A stretch of 64,000 bases of DNA. Origin: Escherichia coli (GTDB lineage: Bacteria; Pseudomonadota; Gammaproteobacteria; Enterobacterales; Enterobacteriaceae). The stretch's first letter is position 1; every line of letters begins with the position of its first letter. Below the pieces are notes generated by a model. The model did no database searches and was not told the origin of the DNA. It saw nothing but the letters and a program-made list of their open reading frames with translations. Both the position numbers and the translations under genes were made by a program. Location of the stretch: NCBI RefSeq assembly GCF_036507355.1, contig NZ_AP027877.1. One strand, written 5' to 3'. Shown piece by piece: positions 6,291 through 61,350 of this stretch.

Positions 6291-7031
6291 TTAGTAAATA
6301 GACACTCTGAACCCCGGATTCAGGAACGACTCGCGCGGAGTGTAATCCAGCGGTTTACCCTGCCAGTCGTGAACATGCGCTCCGGCAGCTGCAGCCACAG
6401 CATGTCCAGCGGCGGTGTCCCAAATATTCGTTGGTCCGAAGCGCGGGTACAGCTGCGCCTGTCCTTCCGCCACCAGGCAGAATTTCAACGAAGAGCCGAT
6501 GGACGTGGTCTGATGTTCGCCAAGCTGTTGCAGATACTCTTTCAGCTCCGCATCTGCATGGGAACGGCTGATAACCACCAGCGGCGGGCGCGCATCGCGG
6601 ACCTGAATCTGCTTGCGCACACCGCACTCTTCTTTCCAGGCCTTGCTTTCTGCCGCGCTGTACATTACGTTCATTACCGGCGCATACACCACACCTAAAA
6701 TCGGTTTGCCATGGTCAATGAGCGCAATGTTAACGGTGAATTCGCCATTACGTTTAATAAACTCTTTCGTACCATCCAGCGGGTCTACCAGCCAGTAACG
6801 CTGCCAGTGCTGACGGACTTCCCAACCAGGAGGATCTTCTTCAGAAAGGACCGGAATATCCGGTGTCAGCGTACGTAAACCGTCCATGATAACGGTGTGT
6901 GCGGCAATATCCGCTGCCGTTACCGGAGAATTGTCCGCTTTGCTGACGACGTCCATCGGTTTCGTCCCGTCGTAGACCTGCATAATGGCATCGCCTGCAT
7001 TCCGTGCAAGCTGGCATACTTGATCTAACAT
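6291..7031 (-). CDS. cysQ: 3'(2'),5'-bisphosphate nucleotidase CysQ
   Basis: ORF track 246 aa; inositol-monophosphatase family, WLVDPLDGT motif. Confidence 0.95.
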
Positions 7032-7222
7032 TTCTCCACCTCGTCTCTGTGAGCGGTGTTAACTTATTGTTTTACTTATACCCTATCATTAATGAATGCG
7101 CCAACTGTGATAGTGTCATCATTTTCAAAGCGTAAAATTGTGGCATTCTTCACTGTTCTATAAGTAAGACGTTTATTCTCCCTTTTCTTTCGTATTCCCG
7201 ATGATAAAAGGATGTCCCTGAT

Positions 7223-7231
7223 GATTAAGTT
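7223..7231. repeat. IS1 target-site duplication, left copy (GATTAAGTT)
   Basis: 9-mer immediately left of IS1 left inverted repeat, identical to 8000-8008. Confidence 0.9.
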
Positions 7232-7286
7232 GGTGATGCTGCCAACTTACTGATTTAGTGTATGATGGTGTTTTTGAGGTGCTCCA

Positions 7287-7562
7287 GTGGCTTCTGTTTC
7301 TATCAGCTGTCCCTCCTGTTCAGCTACTGACGGGGTGGTGCGTAACGGCAAAAGCACCGCCGGACATCAGCGCTATCTCTGCTCTCACTGCCGTAAAACA
7401 TGGCAACTGCAGTTCACTTACACCGCTTCTCAACCCGGTACGCACCAGAAAATCATTGATATGGCCATGAATGGCGTTGGATGCCGGGCAACAGCCCGCA
7501 TTATGGGCATTGGCCTCAACACGATTTTACGTCACTTAAAAAACTCAGGCCGCAGTCGGTAA
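7287..7562 (+). CDS. insA: IS1 InsA
   Basis: ORF track 91 aa, [40 protein letters not shown]... Confidence 0.95.
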
Positions 7563-7984
7563 CCTCGCGCATACAGCCGGGCAGTGACGTCATCGTCTGC
7601 GCGGAAATGGACGAACAGTGGGGCTATGTCGGGGCTAAATCGCGCCAGCGCTGGCTGTTTTACGCGTATGACAGGCTCCGGAAGACGGTTGTTGCGCACG
7701 TATTCGGTGAACGCACGATGGCGACGCTGGGGCGTCTTATGAGCCTGCTGTCACCCTTTGACGTGGTGATATGGATGACGGATGGCTGGCCGCTGTATGA
7801 ATCCCGCCTGAAGGGAAAGCTGCACGTAATCAGCAAGCGATATACGCAGCGAATTGAGCGGCATAACCTGAATCTGAGGCAGCACCTGGCACGGCTGGGA
7901 CGGAAGTCGCTGTCGTTCTCAAAATCGGTGGAGCTGCATGACAAAGTCATCGGGCATTATCTGAACATAAAACACTATCAATAA
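7481..7984 (+). CDS. insB: IS1 InsB reading frame (expressed as InsAB' by -1 frameshift)
   Basis: ORF track 167 aa overlapping insA 3' end in the -1 frame. Confidence 0.9.
7538..7544 (+). other. IS1 programmed -1 ribosomal frameshift motif A AAA AAC
   Basis: ttaaaaaac lies in the insA frame (L-K-N) within the insA/insB overlap. Confidence 0.8.
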
Positions 7985-7999
7985 GTTGGAGTCATTACC

Positions 8000-8008
8000 G
8001 ATTAAGTT
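8000..8008. repeat. IS1 target-site duplication, right copy (GATTAAGTT)
   Basis: Identical 9-mer immediately right of IS1 right inverted repeat. Confidence 0.9.
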
Positions 8009-15834: not shown

Positions 15835-16473
15835 ATGCCCGGGCGCTTTGAACTAAAACCAACCCTGGAGAAAGTCTGGCACGCGCCGGACAATTTTCGC
15901 TTCATGGACCCGCTGCCGCCGATGCATCGTCGGGGGATCATTATTGCCGCCATTGTATTGGTGGTCGGATTTCTGCTTCCATCTGATGATACGCCCAACG
16001 CGCCGGTGGTGACGCGTGAAGCGCAGTTAGATATTCAGTCGCAATCACAACCGCCGACAGAAGAACAGCTGCGGGCGCAATTAGTCACACCACAAAATGA
16101 TCCTGATCAGGTGGCTCCGGTCGCTCCAGAACCTATACAGGAAGGCCAGCCAGAAGAACAGCCGCAAACTACCCAAACGCAACCATTCCAGCCAGATAGC
16201 GGAATTGATAATCAATGGCGCTCTTACCGTGTCGAACCCGGTAAAACGATGGCGCAGCTGTTCCGCGACCACGGACTGCCCGCTACCGATGTCTATGCAA
16301 TGGCGCAGGTAGAAGGCGCGGGTAAGCCGCTGAGTAATTTGCAAAACGGGCAGATGGTGAAAATCCGCCAGAACGCCAGCGGCGTGGTGACGGGCTTAAC
16401 CATTGATACGGGGAATAATCAACAGGTCCTGTTTACCCGCCAGCCGGATGGCAGTTTTATTCGCGCGCGGTAG
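15835..16473 (+). CDS. ytfB: OapA/LysM-domain cell-division-associated protein
   Basis: ORF track 15799..16473; ATG at 15835 gives [21 protein letters not shown]..., 212 aa; SD aggagga. Confidence 0.85.
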
Positions 16474-16783
16474 ATGAAGGGTCAACCAGAAGCCAGCTAA
16501 GGATTGTCTCTTTGATGACCTTACGTCTGGCTTCCAGTGCCTGGGGTGAAACCATACTGATGTGATAAACCAGGCCAAGCGTATGCTGGTTGATCAAATA
16601 ATATCCCCCAAGCGCAGCAATATTAATATTCACCTGCAATGGGTCGATATCTGGCTTAAAAATATTGTGTTTCTTCCCTTCATCCAATAAGGATTCCATT
16701 AACTGCAAGTGCGCATGGTTAATTTCTAAGAGACGCTGTGATTTTGCATAATGCACACCTTTACTTTGATTTTCACTATGCAC
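16457..16783 (-). CDS. ytfA: TetR-family regulator C-terminal-like fragment (likely pseudogene)
   Basis: ORF track 108 aa; overlaps ytfB 3' end by 17 nt; no N-terminal HTH region. Confidence 0.6.
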
Positions 16784-17131
16784 AATTTTTAAAAACCAGG
16801 GATTAGCAATATAATAATCCCATGTAAAATAAATAATTTTCTCAATGGCTTTTTGTGGCTGGTTAACCTGCTGATTAACGAATACACCGATACCGACAGC
16901 GTAGAATAATTACATACCGCACAACAAGAATGTACGGTGTAAGGCGTGGAAGTCATTTTCTCCCCGGGTGCATCGTTATATCCGTGATGAGCGATTTTTG
17001 ATATTAATATCTTTCACCATCCGCTATTTTCACTACTTCAGAAAACAAACTTATTTTTATTAATATCGATTCTTTATTCTGTAAACATTCAGCTGAGATA
17101 TTTATAAAAACATTAAACAGGCAACGATACA

Positions 17132-20167: not shown

Positions 20168-20847
20168 TTACTTCTGCCCGTAATAAGCGTTGGGACCGTG
20201 CTTACGCATGAAGTGTTTATTCATCAGGTAGCTGTCGATGTGATTGAGTTGTGGGTTAATGCCGCGGGCAATCCACGCCATTTTCGCCACTTCTTCCATC
20301 ACCACCGCGTTATGCACCGCATCGTGAGCATCTTTCCCCCAGGCGAACGGCCCGTGCTGATACACCACAATTCCCGGCGTATGCAGCGGCTCGGCGTTGC
20401 CCAGCGTTTCGATAATCACTTTGCCGGTGTTCAGTTCATACTCGCCCTGCACCTCTTCTTCGCTTAACCCGCGCGTACACGGAATGTCGCCAAAGAAGTA
20501 GTCGGCGTGCGTGGTGCCTAACGCCGGGATCGCCAGCCCCGCCTGCGCCCATGCGGTAGCATGAGTTGAGTGGGTATGGACAATGCCGCCAAGCGACGGG
20601 TAACGACGGTAGAGTTCAAGATGCGTCGCGGTGTCGGAAGACGGACGATATTCCCCTTCCACCACCTTACCGCTCATATCGACCACCACCATATCGTCTG
20701 CTTTCATGGGGCGACGCCGCTGGGCTTGATCACCACCAGCCCGCGTTCGCGGTCGATAGCGCTGACGTTGCCCCAAGTAAAGGTCACCAGCCCATAGCGC
20801 GGCAGATCCATGTTGGCTTCAAACACCTGCTGTTTTAGCTTTTGCAT
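20168..20847 (-). pseudogene. ulaF: L-ribulose-5-phosphate 4-epimerase (class II aldolase family), apparently frameshifted
   Basis: N-terminal 47 codons ([46 protein letters not shown]) end at TGA 20704-20706; the rest ([18 protein letters not shown]...YYGQK) continues in another frame to 20168. Confidence 0.75.
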
Positions 20848-21701
20848 TATGCCGCCTCCACCATGCCCGCTTTCGCCATGCGCGCTTTCACCCAATCACG
20901 CGCTTTCGCCACTTCTGCCGCCGGGTCTTCCGCCGTTTCGCTCCACATCTCAATCAGGTATGGCCCGCAATAGCCACTCTGTTTGAGCGTTTCGAAACAA
21001 CGTTCGAAATCCACTACACCTTCGCCAAACGGCACGTTTTTGAAGACGCCCGGTTTGGTGTCTTTCACATGCACCGCGACGATATGCCCGATTCCGGCCT
21101 GCAACTCCATCTGCACGTCGTTATCCCACGCCGACAGGTTGCCGATATCCGGGTAGAGCTGGAACCACGGATTGTTGAGATAGTGCGCGTAGCCCAGCGC
21201 CTTGCTGATGGAGTTCATCAACGGATAATCCATGATCTCCATCGCCAGCGTCACCTGCGCGCGGCTTGCCATCTCAACGCTCTCTTTCAGGCCGTCACGG
21301 AAACGACGACGCGTTTCGTTATTGGCTTCCTGATAGTAAACGTCATAGCCCGCCAGCTGGATCACGCGAATACCGACATCCTGGGCGAACTGGATAGCTT
21401 TACGCATAATCTCCAGCCCCTGCGCCCGCACCGCGTCATCTTCACTGCCCAGCGGGAAACGACGATGAGCAGAAAGGCACATGGACGGCACGCGCACGCC
21501 GGTTTCAACAATCGCATTGACCAGCGCCAGACGCTGCTCGCGGCTCCAGTCGAGGCGCGACAGGCGCTCGTCCGTTTCATCTACCGACATCTCGACAAAA
21601 TCGAAGCCCAACGTTTTTGCCAGTTGCAGGCGTTCCAGCCAGCACTCCCCGGCGGGGAGCGCTTTTTCATAGATGCCAAGCGGGATTTGTTTGGACAACA
21701 T
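20847..21701 (-). CDS. ulaE: L-ribulose-5-phosphate 3-epimerase
   Basis: ORF track 284 aa; stop overlaps ulaF start (TAATG). Confidence 0.95.
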
Positions 21702-44345: not shown

Positions 44346-45296
44346 TCAGCCTGCGATAGCACCAACAACCTGTAATACTTCGTCACGCGCCTGTTCTGGT
44401 TTTTCACTATCAAGCCAGTGAACCCCTTCCCAACCACGCAGCCAGGTTATCTGCCGCTTCGCCAACTGTCTCGTGGCGCAAACACCTCGATAAACCATTT
44501 CATCGTATGAGATTTCGCCTTCAAGGTAAGACCACATCTGGCGATAACCCACGCAACGAATGGAAGGCAAGTCCGTATGCAAATCTCCTCGGGCAAAAAG
44601 CGCCCGGACTTCTGCTTCAAAACCTGAAGCCAACATCTGATGAAAACGCTGCTCAATGCGTTGATGGAGCAGTTCACGGCTCGCCGGGGCGATGGCGAAC
44701 TGATGCACCTGATACGGTAGAGCGTCTCCTGACGTTTGCGTCAGTTCCGTTAAAGTTTTACCCGAAATGAAAAAAACTTCCAGTGCCCGGGAAAGCCTTT
44801 GTGGATCATTTGGATGAATCCTTGCTGCCGCAACCGGATCTACCTCCTGAAGTTGACGATGCAATGACTCCCAACCTTGCTCTGCCGCCTGTTGCTCAAT
44901 TCTGGCCCGCACTTCCGGGTCTGCCGACGGTAGCGGCGATAACCCTTCCAGCAATGCCTTGAAATACAACATCGTACCGCCCACTAACAGTGGGATCCGC
45001 CCCGCCGCGGTGATATCGGCCATTTCCGCCAGCGCATCGCGGCGAAAATCAGCAGCCGAGTAAGCCTGCGACGGATCGCGAATATCCAGCAATCGGTGCG
45101 GCGCGGCGAGTAACTCTTCAGCGTTCGGCTTCGCCGTCCCGATATCCATCCCTTTGTAAATAAGGGCAGAATCAACGCTTATCAACTCTACTGGTAAAAT
45201 TTTACGCAGCTCAATGGCTAACGCCGTTTTACCGGAGGCCGTCGGCCCCATCAAAAAAATCGCCTTAGGCAGGCTCGCCTTACTGATATCACTCAT
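44346..45296 (-). CDS. miaA: tRNA dimethylallyltransferase
   Basis: ORF track 316 aa; P-loop GPTASGKT. Confidence 0.95.
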
Positions 45297-47136
45297 CTTT
45301 CAGGGCTTTTATCGCCGGATGTAAATCAACAGATTGTAACAGACCACCCGGCGGCGTTTTCACAAGTTGCGGACATAACCGTTCCACGTCCGCCAGCAGG
45401 GTTATGGCCTGTGCCATTGACCACTGTGCATGTTCGCTCATCAGATTTCGTGCAATCCACTGCGCAATATTGCCAGGTTCGAATACGGACTGCTTCGCCA
45501 GGTAGCCTATCAGTTCAGGAATCAAGATTTGTAAATTTTGTTGGCGTAAGGGTAAAGGCACGGCCCTGATGGTCACATGCTGTGCATCTGACTGGAAATC
45601 AATACCCAATTCCGCCAGGGCAGACTGCGCTTTTTCTAATGCCGATTTTTCTTCGCCAGAAACTTTTAGCCGCAACGGAATCAGCAACGGCTGGGCGCAA
45701 ACGGGCGCTTCACCCGGCGTCAGTTGTACCTGACGCAGCCAACGTTCTGCCACTGGCAAGGCTAAAAGTGAAATGTTGCCGTCGCGCTCCAGCAACGCAC
45801 AGTCGGAATGGACGATAGTCAGTACCCGACCAAAACTCTGACTGTTCGCCGCAAGTGCAGGTTCCTGCGGTTCCGGCGCTTTTGGTTTTTGCATCGGCGC
45901 GGGCGTTTGCAAAAGCAGGCGATACACTTCACCTTGCTGTTTCTGGTAGCCTGGCTGCGCATTCGGCCAGGGGGCAGCCGGACGACTGCCTGAGGCGGGC
46001 GCAGGAGAGTAGCGCGGAGCTACCGGCTCACGAGCTGCCGGTTCTGCAAAGTGATTGCGCCCCGCCGCCACGCGGTTTTCCGGAATGGGACGCGGTGCAG
46101 GTTGGGGTTCATCGTCCAGCGGTAGCGGCGTTTCCAGTTGCTGTTGTAGCACGCTCAGCACGCCCTGATAGATAAAATCATGCACCAGACGCGACTGATG
46201 GAAACGCACTTCGTGTTTGGCGGGGTGTACGTTGACGTCCACCTGATGCGGGTCGATCTCCAGATACAACACAAACGCCGGTTGTTGATCGGCCCCCAGT
46301 TTGTCTTCGCAGGCCTGGCGGATCGCATGATTGATCAGGCGATCGCGCATCATGCGACCATTCACGTAGCAATACTGAATTTCTGCCAGGGCGGGCGTGG
46401 TGTGATTCGGATCGGCCACCCAGCCGCGCAGGGTGAGATCGCCGTGTTGCCATTCAATCGCCAGCGCTTGTTCGAGAAAAGCGGTGCCACAAATCGCGCC
46501 TAAGCGCCGTTCTTTTTGCCCGCCTTCCGGCACTGCGCGGTACTGACGCACAATTTTACCGTTATGCGACAGGTTGATCGTGACGTCGAAACGCGCCAGC
46601 GCAATGCGGCGGATGATTTCATCGATATGGTTAAATTCGGTTTTCTCGGTGCGCAGGAATTTGCGCCGCGCCGGGGTGTTGTAGAACAGATCCAGCACCT
46701 CCAGCGTCGTTCCCACCGGATGCGCCGCCGGTTTAACCGTCACTTCCATATCGCGCCCTTCGGCATAGGCCTGCCAGGCTTCCTGCTGTTCTGCGGTGCG
46801 TGAAGTGAGCGTCAGGCGGGAAACCGAACTGATACTCGCCAGCGCCTCACCGCGAAAGCCCAGGCTGATAATGGCTTCGAGATCGTCCAGAGAGGCGATT
46901 TTACTGGTGGCATGACGAGCCAGCGCCAGCGCCAGCTCATCTTTTTTGATACCGCAGCCGTTATCACGAATGCGGATAAGTTTCGCCCCACCGCGTTCGA
47001 TATCAATATCGATACGCGTCGCACCTGCATCGAGGCTGTTTTCCACCAGTTCTTTGACTACCGACGCAGGTCGCTCGACCACCTCACCTGCGGCAATCTG
47101 GTTCGCCAGTTGTGGCGGTAAGACCTGAATTGGCAT
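45289..47136 (-). CDS. mutL: DNA mismatch repair protein MutL
   Basis: ORF track 45289..47139 (MMPIQ...); start taken at the second Met, 615 aa; overlaps miaA by 8 nt. Confidence 0.95.
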
Positions 47137-47145
47137 CAATCGTCC

Positions 47146-48483
47146 TTAGTTTGGCAGCGTGCGATCTGGCGTCGTCACCGTACTGGCCGTTTGTGCCGTT
47201 GCCCCCTGCGGCGCAGATTGCATCGGATGCGCAAGGAAATAATTGCGCAGGCCTTTGTAAATGGCTTCTGCCAGCTGTTGTTGGTAATCGTCGCTCGCCA
47301 GCAAACGTTCTTCGCTGTTGTTGCTGATAAAACCGGTTTCGACCAGTACTGATGGGATATCCGGCGAACGCAGAACGCCAAGGCTGGCATGTTCTGGTCG
47401 GCGTTTATGTATTTCGCCAATGCGTTGCAACTGACTGATCATACTGGTCGCTACATCATACCCTACCCGCTGGGAATGACCGAACTGTAAATCCAGCACC
47501 GCCTGGCTTAAATAGGGGTCAGACTGACTGTTCGCCAGCACATCGCCCGCGCCGCCCAGCAGCTCCGACTGTTTCTCATGCTGTTCCAGCCAGCTTGCCA
47601 TCTCGCTGTTTGCACGACGGTTTGAGAGCACCCATACGGAAGCGCCAGTCGCACTGCGGTTCGGTGCGGCATCAGCGTGAATCGACACGAGGAAATTGGC
47701 GTTTTGCTTACGTGCCACATCGCTGCGCCCCATCACCGAGATAAAGTAATCCCCGTCACGGGTTAAAACGCCTTTAAACATCGGATCGTCATTGAGCAAA
47801 GTACGCAATTTACGCGCGATGGCGATGGTGACATTTTTCTCCCGCGTACCACCGGGGCCGATAGCGCCAGGGTCCTGACCGCCGTGTCCGGCATCAATAG
47901 CGATGATAATTTTATCGCCAGTGTTAGCCGTCGCGCGCGCTGCCGGACGCGTTACCGTATTACTGCTGATAACACCCGTAGTGCGGTTACTTTCCGTTTT
48001 AAACGGATTGCGCGCCGGTTCGCTGACGCGCGGTGCGACAACCGCAGGCGTTTCAACGCGTTTCGCAACCACAGGCGGCGGAGGAGGCGGTGGCGGCGCA
48101 TCGGCGTTAATCGTAAAGACGACAGTGTAATTGCTGCCATTCTGCCGCTTCACCGCTTCGGTTTTACCATTTTCGGTAAGATCGACCACCAGCCGTAGCG
48201 TTTGTGCATCTTTAGGCGTTCCGGAGCGAATCGCCTTCACCAGATTATTACCGCTGAACAACAACGGCAGTCCCTGAATCACGCCCGTTTGTTTGATATC
48301 GAGCGCCACGGTGCGTTTGCTTTGATGGCTAAACGCATAATCAGGATCGCCAATAAAACTCAACGTTATCCGCGCCTGTTGATTACCGTTAGAAACCTGA
48401 ATATCAGAGAGCGTCGCGGCACCCACCTGCGCGCACAGCAGCAGCAACGTCGCTACCAACCAATTTCTGATGCGATACATCAT
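47146..48483 (-). CDS. amiB: N-acetylmuramoyl-L-alanine amidase AmiB
   Basis: ORF track 47146..48498; start [23 protein letters not shown] (signal peptide), 445 aa. Confidence 0.93.
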
Positions 48484-48501
48484 CCTGCCACCTTTCAAAG
48501 G

Positions 48502-50480
<1,979 letters not shown>

Positions 50481-50482
<2 letters not shown>

Positions 50483-51620
50483 GTCAGAGCCCCTCGATCT
50501 CAATCAGTTAGCGCAAAAAATTAAACAGTGGGGGCTGGAACTGGGCTTTCAGCAGGTAGGTATTACCGATACCGATCTCAGCGAGTCCGAGCCCAAACTG
50601 CAAGCATGGCTGGACAAACAATACCACGGCGAAATGGACTGGATGGCACGTCACGGTATGTTGCGCGCCCGCCCTCACGAATTATTGCCCGGTACGCTGC
50701 GCGTGATCAGCGTGCGGATGAATTACCTTCCTGCTAACGCCGCATTTGCCAGCACGCTGAAAAACCCCAAACTCGGCTATGTCAGCCGTTATGCGCTGGG
50801 CCGTGACTATCACAAACTTCTGCGCAACCGACTCAAAAAGCTGGGCGAGATGATTCAGCAACATTGTGTTTCGCTGAATTTTAGACCGTTTGTCGATTCT
50901 GCGCCTATTCTCGAGCGCCCGTTAGCTGAAAAAGCTGGGCTCGGCTGGACAGGTAAGCACTCACTTATCCTCAATCGCGAGGCCGGTTCGTTCTTCTTTT
51001 TAGGCGAATTGCTGGTCGATATTCCGCTGCCCGTGGATCAACCAGTCGAGGAAGGATGCGGCAAATGCGTGGCCTGTATGACGATTTGCCCGACCGGTGC
51101 CATCGTCGAGCCATATACCGTCGATGCTCGCCGCTGTATCTCTTATCTCACCATCGAACTGGAAGGGGCGATCCCGGAAGAGTTGCGACCGTTAATGGGA
51201 AACCGTATTTACGGTTGCGATGACTGCCAGCTTATCTGCCCGTGGAATCGCTATTCACAACTCACTACAGAAGACGATTTCAGCCCGCGTAAGCCGCTAC
51301 ACGCACCGGAACTCATTGAGTTATTCGCCTGGAGCGAAGAGAAGTTTTTAAAAGTCACGGAAGGATCGGCGATTCGTCGTATTGGTCACCTGCGTTGGCT
51401 GCGTAATATCACCGTAGCATTAGGCAATGCGCCCTGGGATGAAACGATTCTGGCGGCGCTGGAGAGTCGCAAAGGTGAGCACCCACTTCTTGATGAGCAC
51501 ATAGCGTGGGCGATGGCGCAGCAAATCGAGAGGCGAAATGCGTGCATAGTCGAAGTGCAATTGCCGAAAAAACAGCGTCTGGTTCGGGTAATTGAAAAAG
51601 GGTTACCGCGTGACGCCTGA
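50481..51620 (+). CDS. queG: Epoxyqueuosine reductase (4Fe-4S)
   Basis: ORF track 50373..51620; ATG at 50481 gives MSEPLDLNQLAQKIKQWG..., 379 aa; CxxCxxC ferredoxin motifs. Confidence 0.9.
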
Positions 51621-51889
51621 TTCATCCACAGCTTGTGAATAAAAATAAAAACGCATTGCAATTCAAGACGAATAAAATCGTCAAGTGATCGACTCGACAA
51701 AACGGAATCTTAATTTTTAACTTATCTATCAATAGGTTAAAAAAATACTATTCACCGTGCGAAGTTTCTTTGAAATTAAGATTACAGCCTGAGGCTGTGG
51801 ATAACTCTGTTTACAAGAGTTTGTCAGAGACAACAAAAACCAGCAATAACGCATCGCGTCGCTGTGGATATTTTATTGAGAGAAGAATT

Positions 51890-51965
<76 letters not shown>

Positions 51966-52000
51966 TTGGGTGGTCTGTGCCTTACAGCACTTTCAAATTT

Positions 52001-52076
<76 letters not shown>

Positions 52077-52112
52077 TTGGGTGGTCTGTGCTTTACAGCA
52101 CTTTTCAAATTT

Positions 52113-52188
<76 letters not shown>

Positions 52189-52398
52189 GTACTACTTAAT
52201 TTTGCTTTCGTAATTTTCGCATTTCTGCGTCGTTACGGGAGGCGCATTATACGAGAAATCTTTCCCTCTGCAACCCCCCTAAAAAATTTTTTTTGAGTTT
52301 TTATCTCAAGTGCTGAAATTATCAGCAAGACGTTCAATTTAGCGTCAAAATCACGCCGCCGCAAGTGGATTCCGGCGCTTACGTGACCAGCAAAAATT

Positions 52399-52944
52399 TT
52401 ACAGCTTGATAAAATGCTCGCGGTAGTAAGCCAGCTCCGCCACCGATTCACGGATATCATCCATCGCCTGATGCGTCCCCTGCTTGGTAAAACCATCCAA
52501 AATTTCCGGCTTCCAGCGGCGCGCCAGCTCTTTCAGGGTGCTGACATCGAGATAACGGTAGTGGAAGTAGGCTTCCAGCTCCGGCATGTATTTAAACAGG
52601 AAGCGACGATCCTGGCCGATGCTGTTACCGCAAATCGGCGATTTTCCCGCAGGCACCCACTGTTTTAAGAATTCGAGCGTTGCCAGTTCAGCTTCACGAT
52701 CGCCCATCGTGCTCGCTTTCACGCGCTCCACCAGCCCGCTGGCGGTATGGGTGCGCACGTTCCAGTCATCCATCAGCGCCAGCTGTTCATCAGACTGGTG
52801 TACTGCAATGGTCGGCCCTTCTGCCAGAATATTCAGGTTGGCATCGGTCACCAGCGTGGCAATCTCAATAATGCGATCGCGCTCGGGATCCAGACCGGTC
52901 ATCTCAAGATCGATCCAAATCAGGTTGTTTTCATTGGCACTCAT
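52399..52944 (-). CDS. orn: Oligoribonuclease
   Basis: ORF track 52399..53088; ATG at 52942-52944 gives [23 protein letters not shown]..., 181 aa. Confidence 0.95.
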
Positions 52945-60372: not shown

Positions 60373-61350
60373 TTATGCCCGGTCAACGCTAAAGGCGATG
60401 ACTTCAGCCAGTGTCTCCGCGCCCAGCGCCAACATCACCAGACGATCAACGCCTAATGCCACGCCGGAACAGTCAGGCATACCGACTTTCAAGGCTTCAA
60501 TCAGATTCTGGTCAATGGGGTGCTGCGGCAAACCGCGCACCGCGCGCTTACGGTTATCTTGTTCAAAGCGTTGTTGCTGCTCACGGGCATCCGTCAATTC
60601 ATGGAAACCATTCGCCAGCTCAATACCTTTATAATAAACCTCAAAGCGTTCAGCGACCCGATGATCTTCGGTACTGATTTGCGCCAGTGATGCCTGGCTG
60701 GCTGGAAAGTGGTACACAAAGGTCGGTTTTTCTTTACCAATATTTGGCTCTACGCCAAAGGTAAACAGCAATTGTAGCAACGTGTCGCGGTCTTCTTCGG
60801 TATCAGCAACATTGCTCAAATCCAGTTTCGCTGCCACTTCCCGCAGTTGCGTTTTGTCGGCAGAGAGCGGGTCAATTTCCAGATAACGCAAGAAAGCTTG
60901 TTGATAAGAAAGGCTTTCTGCTGCCGGGCAGTCCAGCACTTGTTGTAAGAGATCGTCCACCTCGTTCATCAACCGGTACATATCATAGTGCGGTCGATAC
61001 CACTCAAGCATAGTGAACTCAGGGTTGTGATAACGCCCCATCTCTTCATTACGGAAGCTGCGGCACAGCTGGAATACCGGCCCACAACCAGCAACCAGCA
61101 GGCGTTTCATATGGTATTCCGGGCTGGTCATTAACCAGAGATTCATCCCCTGCGAATGCCCGGGGCCAACGAAACGTGTCTCAAACGGGACCAAATGAAT
61201 ATCGGTTACCGTCGCCTGGCTCATACAAGGCGTCTCCACCTCCAGCACTCCACGATCGGCAAAGAAACGACGGATCTCCGCCATAATCGCCGCGCGTTTT
61301 AATAAGTTAGGAATGGATGCGCTCGGCTGCCAGGATGCCGTTTCGCTCAT
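60373..61350 (-). CDS. epmA: EF-P lysine-34 lysyltransferase (class II LysRS paralogue)
   Basis: ORF track 60373..61395; start [21 protein letters not shown]..., 325 aa. Confidence 0.93.

Follow-up and report, generated by a model that had tools for sequence, protein, structure and literature searches.

A conserved polyproline tract of variable length opens the interdomain linker of the septal amidase AmiB

The septal amidase AmiB of Escherichia coli carries eight consecutive prolines, and we consider it very probable that they constitute a conserved polyproline segment that opens the interdomain linker after the AMIN domain, that is maintained at the protein level under a loose constraint on length, that needs EF-P for its translation and that likely serves as a spacer, with the proximity of epmA being incidental. 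The tract starts approximately three residues past the last AMIN strand and heads a disordered linker of approximately 65 residues. All of the sampled Enterobacteriaceae AmiB proteins have kept it as a protein feature, and its length in E. coli drifts from 5 to 11 prolines by in-frame insertion or deletion of 3, 6 or 9 nt. The prolines would most likely adopt a short, stiff polyproline-II rod of approximately 2.5 nm, which would keep the AMIN domain apart from the flexible linker and the catalytic domain. Ribosomes require EF-P for efficient passage over the tract. This translational cost would be tolerable because little AmiB is made and EF-P normally suffices, to judge from the wild-type asymmetry of approximately 1 at amiB (described below). 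The location of epmA, 11.9 kb away, would be a by-product of chromosome organization and would lie outside this mechanism. The features on which the argument depends are collected in Table 1; the window is the whole 64-kb stretch of DNA that was analysed.

Table 1. Positions, in window coordinates, of amiB, the parts of its product and the genes discussed with it
Feature	Position	Strand	Description
amiB, septal N-acetylmuramoyl-L-alanine amidase	47146..48483	minus	445 aa + stop; NCBIfam NF007751 equivalog
AMIN domain (septal targeting, peptidoglycan-binding)	48148..48405	minus	AmiB residues 27–112; Pfam PF11741
Inter-domain linker, headed by the proline tract	47905..48102	minus	AmiB residues 128–193; coil in AlphaFold2 model
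Eight Pro codons	48073..48096	minus	AmiB residues 130–137; translation PPPPPPPP
Amidase_3 catalytic domain	47245..47904	minus	AmiB residues 194–413; Pfam PF01520
mutL	45289..47136	minus	begins 9 nt past the amiB stop, same strand
tsaE and nnr	48502..50482	minus	directly upstream of amiB; nnr-tsaE-amiB-mutL string
epmA, EF-P--(R)-beta-lysine ligase	60373..61350	minus	325 aa + stop; NF006828, TIGR00462, Pfam tRNA-synt_2 core

Around the tract the minus strand reads GAT GCG CCG CCA CCG CCT CCT CCG CCG CCT GTG GTT, in which the inner eight codons, CCG CCA CCG CCT CCT CCG CCG CCT, encode the prolines, and the protein context is NADA-P8-VVAK. The initial annotation correctly reported eight proline codons in amiB and aptly called them a degenerate CCN run, given the mixture of CCG, CCA and CCT codons, but the coordinates that it assigned, 48074–48097, miss the reading frame by one base and would give AATASSAA. 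Polyproline stalling motifs comprise at least three consecutive proline codons in the translated frame, and amiB has eight. At the proline frequency of the window (4.5%), runs of at least eight prolines are expected by chance approximately 2e-5 times per proteome of 1.35 million residues; the P8 run is beyond chance. A search for (CCN)5 on both strands of the 64 kb returned four overlapping matches, all of them within the tract, compared with 0.06 expected, and only two of the 60 mapped window genes encode three or more consecutive prolines: amiB (P8) and ytfE (PPP). At 48073–48098, Tandem Repeats Finder reported an imperfect 9-nt period (2.9 copies, 82% matches). The P8 tract of AmiB is a textbook extreme among the polyproline motifs of E. 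coli, and both the run and its dependence on EF-P were already known. An antisense open reading frame on the plus strand (47884–48198, 104 aa), the translation of which contains RRRRRRWRR, mirrors the CCN run inside the well-supported amiB and was rejected as a gene.

The identity of the gene is clear. The product scores 978.3 bits against its NCBIfam equivalog (cut-off, 532), which covers residues 1–445 of 445, and shares 99.6% identity with the product of the amiB gene that RefSeq annotates in E. coli strain 7/2; the start at 48483 gives the N terminus MMYRIRNW. Pfam searches found both an N-terminal AMIN domain, with a match that barely exceeds the threshold (20.8 bits; cut-off, 20.5), and a C-terminal Amidase_3 domain (164.7 bits, E = 2.8e-48). 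AmiB also matches PDB entry 8c0j (E = 5e-143), the sole AmiB structure in the Protein Data Bank, which spans residues 190–422; the proline tract lies outside it. In the window, amiB occurs in the order tsaE–amiB–mutL, and tsaE is upstream of amiB in all 16 of the E. coli loci fetched. A scan of positions 47000–52500 for promoters and terminators returned none exceeding the shuffled expectation.

For the region between the two domains we drew on an AlphaFold2 model of AmiB, built on a 37-species alignment; the model is poor (mean pLDDT, 51.5) and was consulted solely to see where the AMIN strands end and which stretch is disordered. In this low-confidence model the AMIN β-strands reach E118–127 (window position 48103), and residues 128–191 have no secondary structure, with pLDDT values below 50 over residues 131–189. 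The modelled limits of AMIN and linker are consistent with the Pfam domain limits, and they place the start of the tract approximately three residues past the AMIN end, at the head of the disordered linker. In the cryo-EM study of FtsEX–EnvC–AmiB, a 40-residue linker between the AMIN and catalytic domains was left unbuilt and termed flexible (PMC10214136). The linker around the tract is poorly conserved: some E. coli and Shigella strains have in-frame deletions of 25–31 aa, and a 10-aa duplication is also tolerated.

The tract itself is conserved across the family. In a set of 80 Enterobacteriaceae loci, with one genome per species, a proline tract occurs at the same position in 80 of 80, directly after ..FTI[ND]AD-x. 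The longest unbroken run comprises three prolines in one locus, four in two, five in 12, six in 16, seven in 14, eight in 29 (the modal length), nine in five and ten in one. The 37-species alignment shows no variation at P134 and P135 and conservation of 90% or more at P133, P136 and P137, and the adjacent linker positions vary. The 23 species that have a pure P8 tract encode it with 23 distinct DNA versions. Because synonymous sites are saturated and the prolines are nonetheless kept, selection acts on the encoded peptide or its translation, and not on the DNA repeat. The codon CCC makes up only 17 of the 577 tract codons, compared with 10.6% of the proline codons in the other window genes (binomial p = 1e-11, for species that are not independent); it is probably avoided because C homopolymers would be slippery and prone to frameshifting.

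More-distant amidases mark the limit of this conservation. Of 123 representatives of more-distant amidases with an N-terminal region, only two have runs of at least five prolines, and the closest of the distant amidases (68% and 58% identity) have no proline run at the tract position. Because relatives at 68% identity or below lack it, the tract is dispensable for amidase function as such. The tract is thus an Enterobacteriaceae-specific, family-level feature, held by protein-level selection, and is not general to AMIN-amidases.

Within E. coli, the length of the tract is polymorphic. Of 5,426 complete E. coli genomes, 5,425 gave a match to a 120-nt query with the tract at its centre; divergent matches were fetched, after which allele-specific queries were run. 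The resulting counts, which derive from identity bands and match spans, are inexact but accurate to a few genomes. P8, the allele of the window, K-12, O157:H7 and UTI89, accounts by subtraction for approximately 83% of genomes. The most frequent alternative, PPSPPP followed by Met, was found at 99% identity or more in 711 genomes (approximately 13%), including ATCC 25922, from which it follows that an unbroken run is dispensable. P6 occurs in approximately 143 genomes and P5 in 19, including E2348/69. P7 occurs in at least 41 genomes as three independent alleles: a single allele is identical in all 30 O145:H28-like genomes, and two more, with other deletions or on other backgrounds, are found in at least 11. 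P11 occurs in one genome, EC42405, and is a 9-nt duplication (CCG CCA CCG) on an allele that is only eight substitutions away over 1.5 kb; a duplication of this size fits the imperfect 9-nt period seen by Tandem Repeats Finder. In total, approximately 17% of genomes carry something other than P8, with a range of 5 to 11 prolines.

Every one of these changes in tract length is in-frame, in multiples of 3 nt. The in-frame length variation that had been raised as a possibility is thus real, with P5, P6, PPSPPP, P7, P8 and P11 alleles in E. coli, and the length is not invariant among the 5,425 genomes compared. The same 111-nt P5 core is found on two amiB backgrounds that are 43–45 substitutions apart, which indicates either short-tract recombination or convergence. 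Overall, the tract seems to change slowly, with new lengths becoming fixed in individual lineages, and not to switch rapidly. The census adds to what was known of amiB that the tract is length-polymorphic in E. coli through recurrent in-frame insertions and deletions. Together with the linker deletions of 25–31 aa, the P5–P11 alleles imply that the constraint on length is loose, as expected of a spacer.

EF-P of E. coli is active only after β-lysylation of Lys34 by EpmA, with β-lysine made by EpmB. Strain BW25113, in which the profiling by asymmetry score was done, is a K-12 derivative, and K-12 MG1655 carries the identical P8 tract in amiB. A 2015 paper identified the amiB run as the longest stretch of prolines in E. 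coli and recorded a sharp rise in wild-type ribosome footprints on it (PMC4402525). A later study (Nat Commun 2024) gauged stalling strength with an asymmetry score, defined as the ribosome occupancy before a motif divided by the occupancy after it (PMC11611912). Across the six PPP positions and one PPV position of amiB in BW25113, this score is 1.0–1.24 in the wild type, 6.7–10.5 in Δefp, 1.0–2.9 in ΔefpL and 3.8–6.7 in Δefp with EfpL overproduced (PMC11611912 Supplementary Data 3B). Without EF-P, the ribosome density past the amiB tract therefore drops 7–10 fold relative to the density ahead of it, and the claim that a tract of this length needs EF-P is borne out by published data. GFP reporters agree in direction, as a PPPPPP insert lowered expression 16–21 fold in Δefp and a PPP insert lowered it 4.7 fold (PMC3638311).

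These data concern ribosome occupancy. In the supplements of PMC11611912, amiB appears in the ribosome-profiling sheet only, and it is absent from those of PMC4140641 (Elgamal 2014), PMC5811046 (Qi 2018) and PMC5021804 (Elgamal 2016). The literature searched, the scope of which lay outside Peil 2013, Woolstenhulme 2015 and Doerfel 2013, yielded no AmiB protein level in efp, epmA or epmB mutants. The role of EpmA as the β-lysine ligase of EF-P, on which the initial annotation relied, is established knowledge; we infer from it that amiB in particular depends on EpmA.

The window does contain epmA, as had been noted; the gene lies on the minus strand, and equivalog matches confirm it. Its product scores 603 bits against NF006828 (cut-off, 264) and 438.6 bits against TIGR00462 (cut-off, 286.9). 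It resembles a class II lysyl-tRNA synthetase without the anticodon-binding domain, with the match confined to the catalytic core (positions 169–483 of LysS), and the gene is annotated as epmA in E. coli strain 7/2, with which the window is collinear at 97–98.5% identity. From the epmA stop (60373) to the amiB start (48483) is 11.9 kb, a distance that holds nine protein genes and three tRNA genes in mixed orientation; those listed are yjeM, mscM, psd, rsgA, orn, three tRNA-Gly(GCC) genes, queG, nnr and tsaE. The genes epmA and amiB belong to separate transcription units. Past epmA, strain 7/2 has epmB and efp another 7–8 kb away, such that epmB, efp, epmA and amiB fall within approximately 23 kb.

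This clustering could be taken to mean that the strongest EF-P client was selected to lie near the EF-P activation genes, through co-regulation or gene-dosage coupling. The span of approximately 23 kb in the collinear strain is in its favour, because such proximity has a probability of approximately 0.5–1% for one pre-specified gene pair, although the comparison here is post hoc. Against it stand the separate transcription units, the mixed orientation and the number of intervening genes, and the synteny within Enterobacteriaceae is inherited and hence offers no independent support. Moreover, PP motifs occur in 22 of the 60 window genes, so any window would contain potential EF-P clients. We know of no shared regulator of, or regulatory connection between, amiB and epmA. 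Selection for their linkage is exceedingly improbable in our view, and the co-location of epmA and amiB is most likely a coincidence.

A different possibility is that slowing of the ribosome is itself selected, either so that the AmiB level follows EF-P activity or so that there is time for signal-peptide targeting or handling of the AMIN domain before the remainder of the protein is synthesized. Such a pause would accord with the footprint peak that is present on the tract even in the wild type (PMC4402525), with the strong EF-P dependence of amiB and with the retention of the tract family-wide although polyproline motifs are generally counter-selected. The position of the tract, which also suits the spacer reading, could be taken in this way: E. 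coli shows an enrichment of polyproline motifs between −2 and +9 residues from domain ends, and a role in co-translational folding has been proposed for them (PMC5811046); a tract that begins approximately three residues past AMIN falls inside that zone. However, the wild-type asymmetry of approximately 1.0–1.2 implies that EF-P, when present, keeps the tract from limiting throughput, which argues against constitutive throttling of amiB, and the natural P5 to P11 and PPSPPP alleles are all tolerated. Because AmiB is exported first and then folds in the periplasm, a pause for folding in the cytoplasm would bring no obvious benefit. To our knowledge, there is no condition in which modulated EF-P activity controls AmiB, and we regard a regulatory pause as unlikely. 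At the other extreme, the tract could be neutral filler, a low-complexity stretch of a disordered linker with no function of its own. The poor conservation of the surrounding linker, with its 25–31-aa deletions and 10-aa duplication, and the lack of a tract in more-distant amidases would both be expected under this reading. It is difficult to reconcile with the retention of the tract position in 80 of 80 loci while third codon positions have become fully randomized (all 23 of the P8 DNA versions being distinct), or with the contrast between the invariant or nearly invariant P133–P137 and their variable neighbours, and we judge it very unlikely.

The repeat might instead act as a contingency locus, in which a hypermutable simple sequence changes length and thereby yields useful AmiB variation. 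The P5, P6, P7, P8 and P11 alleles, among which P8 gave way to P7 independently at least three times and a 9-nt stretch was duplicated once, and the detectable, if imperfect, 9-nt period are what such a locus could leave behind. Contingency loci are perfect tandem repeats of identical units, whereas the amiB tract has mixed codons, an 82% repeat match and a paucity of CCC, features that lower slippage. They also switch frame and vary within clones, but all of the amiB variants are in multiples of 3 nt, which precludes on/off switching; the alleles are fixed in lineages, as illustrated by the one P7 allele in 30 of 30 O145-type genomes, and approximately 83% of genomes retain P8. With an imperfect repeat, lineage-fixed alleles and in-frame changes only, we rejected this reading as highly improbable. 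The tract is thus like phase-variable repeats in being a short, length-polymorphic repeat within a coding sequence, and unlike them in these three respects. A spacer that is maintained as protein, with a loosely constrained length, remains the explanation that we prefer.

The allele series also bears on the genes downstream of amiB. [quoted passage not shown] If so, EF-P status would be tied to cell separation, mismatch repair and Hfq levels, and the serine-interrupted lineages (ATCC 25922 among them) would be freed from that coupling. We consider this quite unlikely. The C/G ratio near the tract peaks at 1.3–1.56 and G remains at 23–31%; with only moderate C-richness, there is no convincing rut-like site at the tract. 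No data on mutL expression in Δefp were found in the literature or in the supplement of PMC5021804. In any event, the P5–P11 alleles provide a natural series for asking how the length of a polyproline tract in a periplasmic enzyme balances the cost to translation against the function of the linker.

Among known EF-P clients, the closest likenesses are the XPPX stalling motifs of CadC, AtpD and CpxA, which amiB resembles in having consecutive proline codons, a pile-up of ribosomes in Δefp and partial relief by EfpL. Clients of this type are listed in the same table as amiB (PMC11611912); amiB differs from them in having the longest run of the genome, with eight prolines (PMC4402525). The likeness to the domain-boundary motifs of Qi et al. 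2018 lies in the position of the tract within their −2 to +9 zone; that study takes a statistical approach, neither its text nor its supplements mention amiB, and its rationale of co-translational folding is ill-suited to a protein that folds only after export (PMC5811046). The E. coli paralogue AmiC (PDB 4bin) has the same AMIN–linker–amidase layout as AmiB, and its catalytic domain matches that of AmiB (E = 7e-49). AmiC has no polyproline run in the table of the top 29 motifs, and its sole pair motif, PPA, is without an EF-P effect (PMC11611912); the tract is specific to AmiB.

Two further systems frame how the AmiB tract might be understood. The polyproline motif of CadC has a regulatory use, as reported by Ude et al. 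in 2013, and we know of nothing comparable for AmiB. In TonB, a (Glu-Pro)n(Lys-Pro)n region forms a stiff, proline-rich spacer between domains of an envelope protein. The AmiB tract may be analogous to it, differing in that it is a pure and much shorter homopolymer that heads a flexible linker.

An identical 111-nt core surrounds the five-proline (P5) version of the AmiB tract in the E. coli loci from E2348/69, O157:H7 TR01 and 14EC033, and the two amiB backgrounds that carry this core differ by 43–45 substitutions over 1.5 kb. The occurrence of the same core on such diverged backgrounds suggests that the tract region may have moved between phylogroups by short-tract recombination. The amiB locus of ‘E. 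coli’ SCPM-O-B-7615 has around 100 substitutions in 1.5 kb relative to all others, and its six-proline (P6) codon string is the same as that of E. albertii; this strain possibly belongs to a cryptic clade or is mislabelled. Two assemblies titled Chryseobacterium sp. (L064) and Collinsella sp. MAG (L071) contain amiB genes of Enterobacteriaceae or E. coli type, with the PPSPPP allele in the latter, and both are probably contaminated.

Codon use within the tract was compared across the 80 Enterobacteriaceae amiB loci that represent one genome per species. CCC is strongly avoided, accounting for 17 of 577 tract codons versus 10.6% in the other genes of the window. A pure eight-proline tract (P8) occurs in 23 of these species and is encoded by 23 distinct DNA versions.

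The length of the linker, the disordered stretch that the tract opens, is strikingly tolerant of change. AmiB variants P0007–P0017 from E. coli and Shigella (414 or 420 amino acids) have lost 25–31 linker residues in frame, between ..PR(VSEPAR) and ATANTG, downstream of the tract, and retain P8. In Escherichia whittamii, ten residues are duplicated directly after P8, with one copy reading VVAKRVEAPP.

In E. coli strain 7/2, which is collinear with the window, epmB and efp lie 7–8 kb past epmA, just outside the high-coordinate end of the window, so that epmB, efp, epmA and amiB together cover approximately 23 kb of the chromosome.

Elsewhere in the window, the ulaF frame that opens with MQKLKQQVF... 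ends after ...KPSGVAP and the remaining protein is encoded in a different frame; this apparent frameshift is either an error in the sequence or the mark of a pseudogene. The IS1 element, which has matches to the Pfam families Zn_ribbon_InsA, HTH_Tnp_IS1 and DDE_Tnp_IS1, is absent from the corresponding site in strain 7/2. In that strain, a disrupted TetR-family gene in the yjfZ–ytfB interval contains a TnpB (InsQ) gene along with the remnant of an IS200/IS605 tnpA, and the window counterpart lacks this insertion.

Locations of features in the window and in related loci
Feature	Location	Strand	Description
IS1 element	window 7031-8001		between cysQ and cpdB; InsA ORF and InsB' in -1 frame
Counterpart without the insertion	window ~16470-17130		corresponds to L098:15060-17208
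tnpA remnant and TnpB (InsQ) gene	L098:15060-17208		strain 7/2
ulaF	window ~20171-20854	-	reading frame seemingly shifted near codons 47-50
amiB, E. whittamii	L020:2001-3365		duplication after P8
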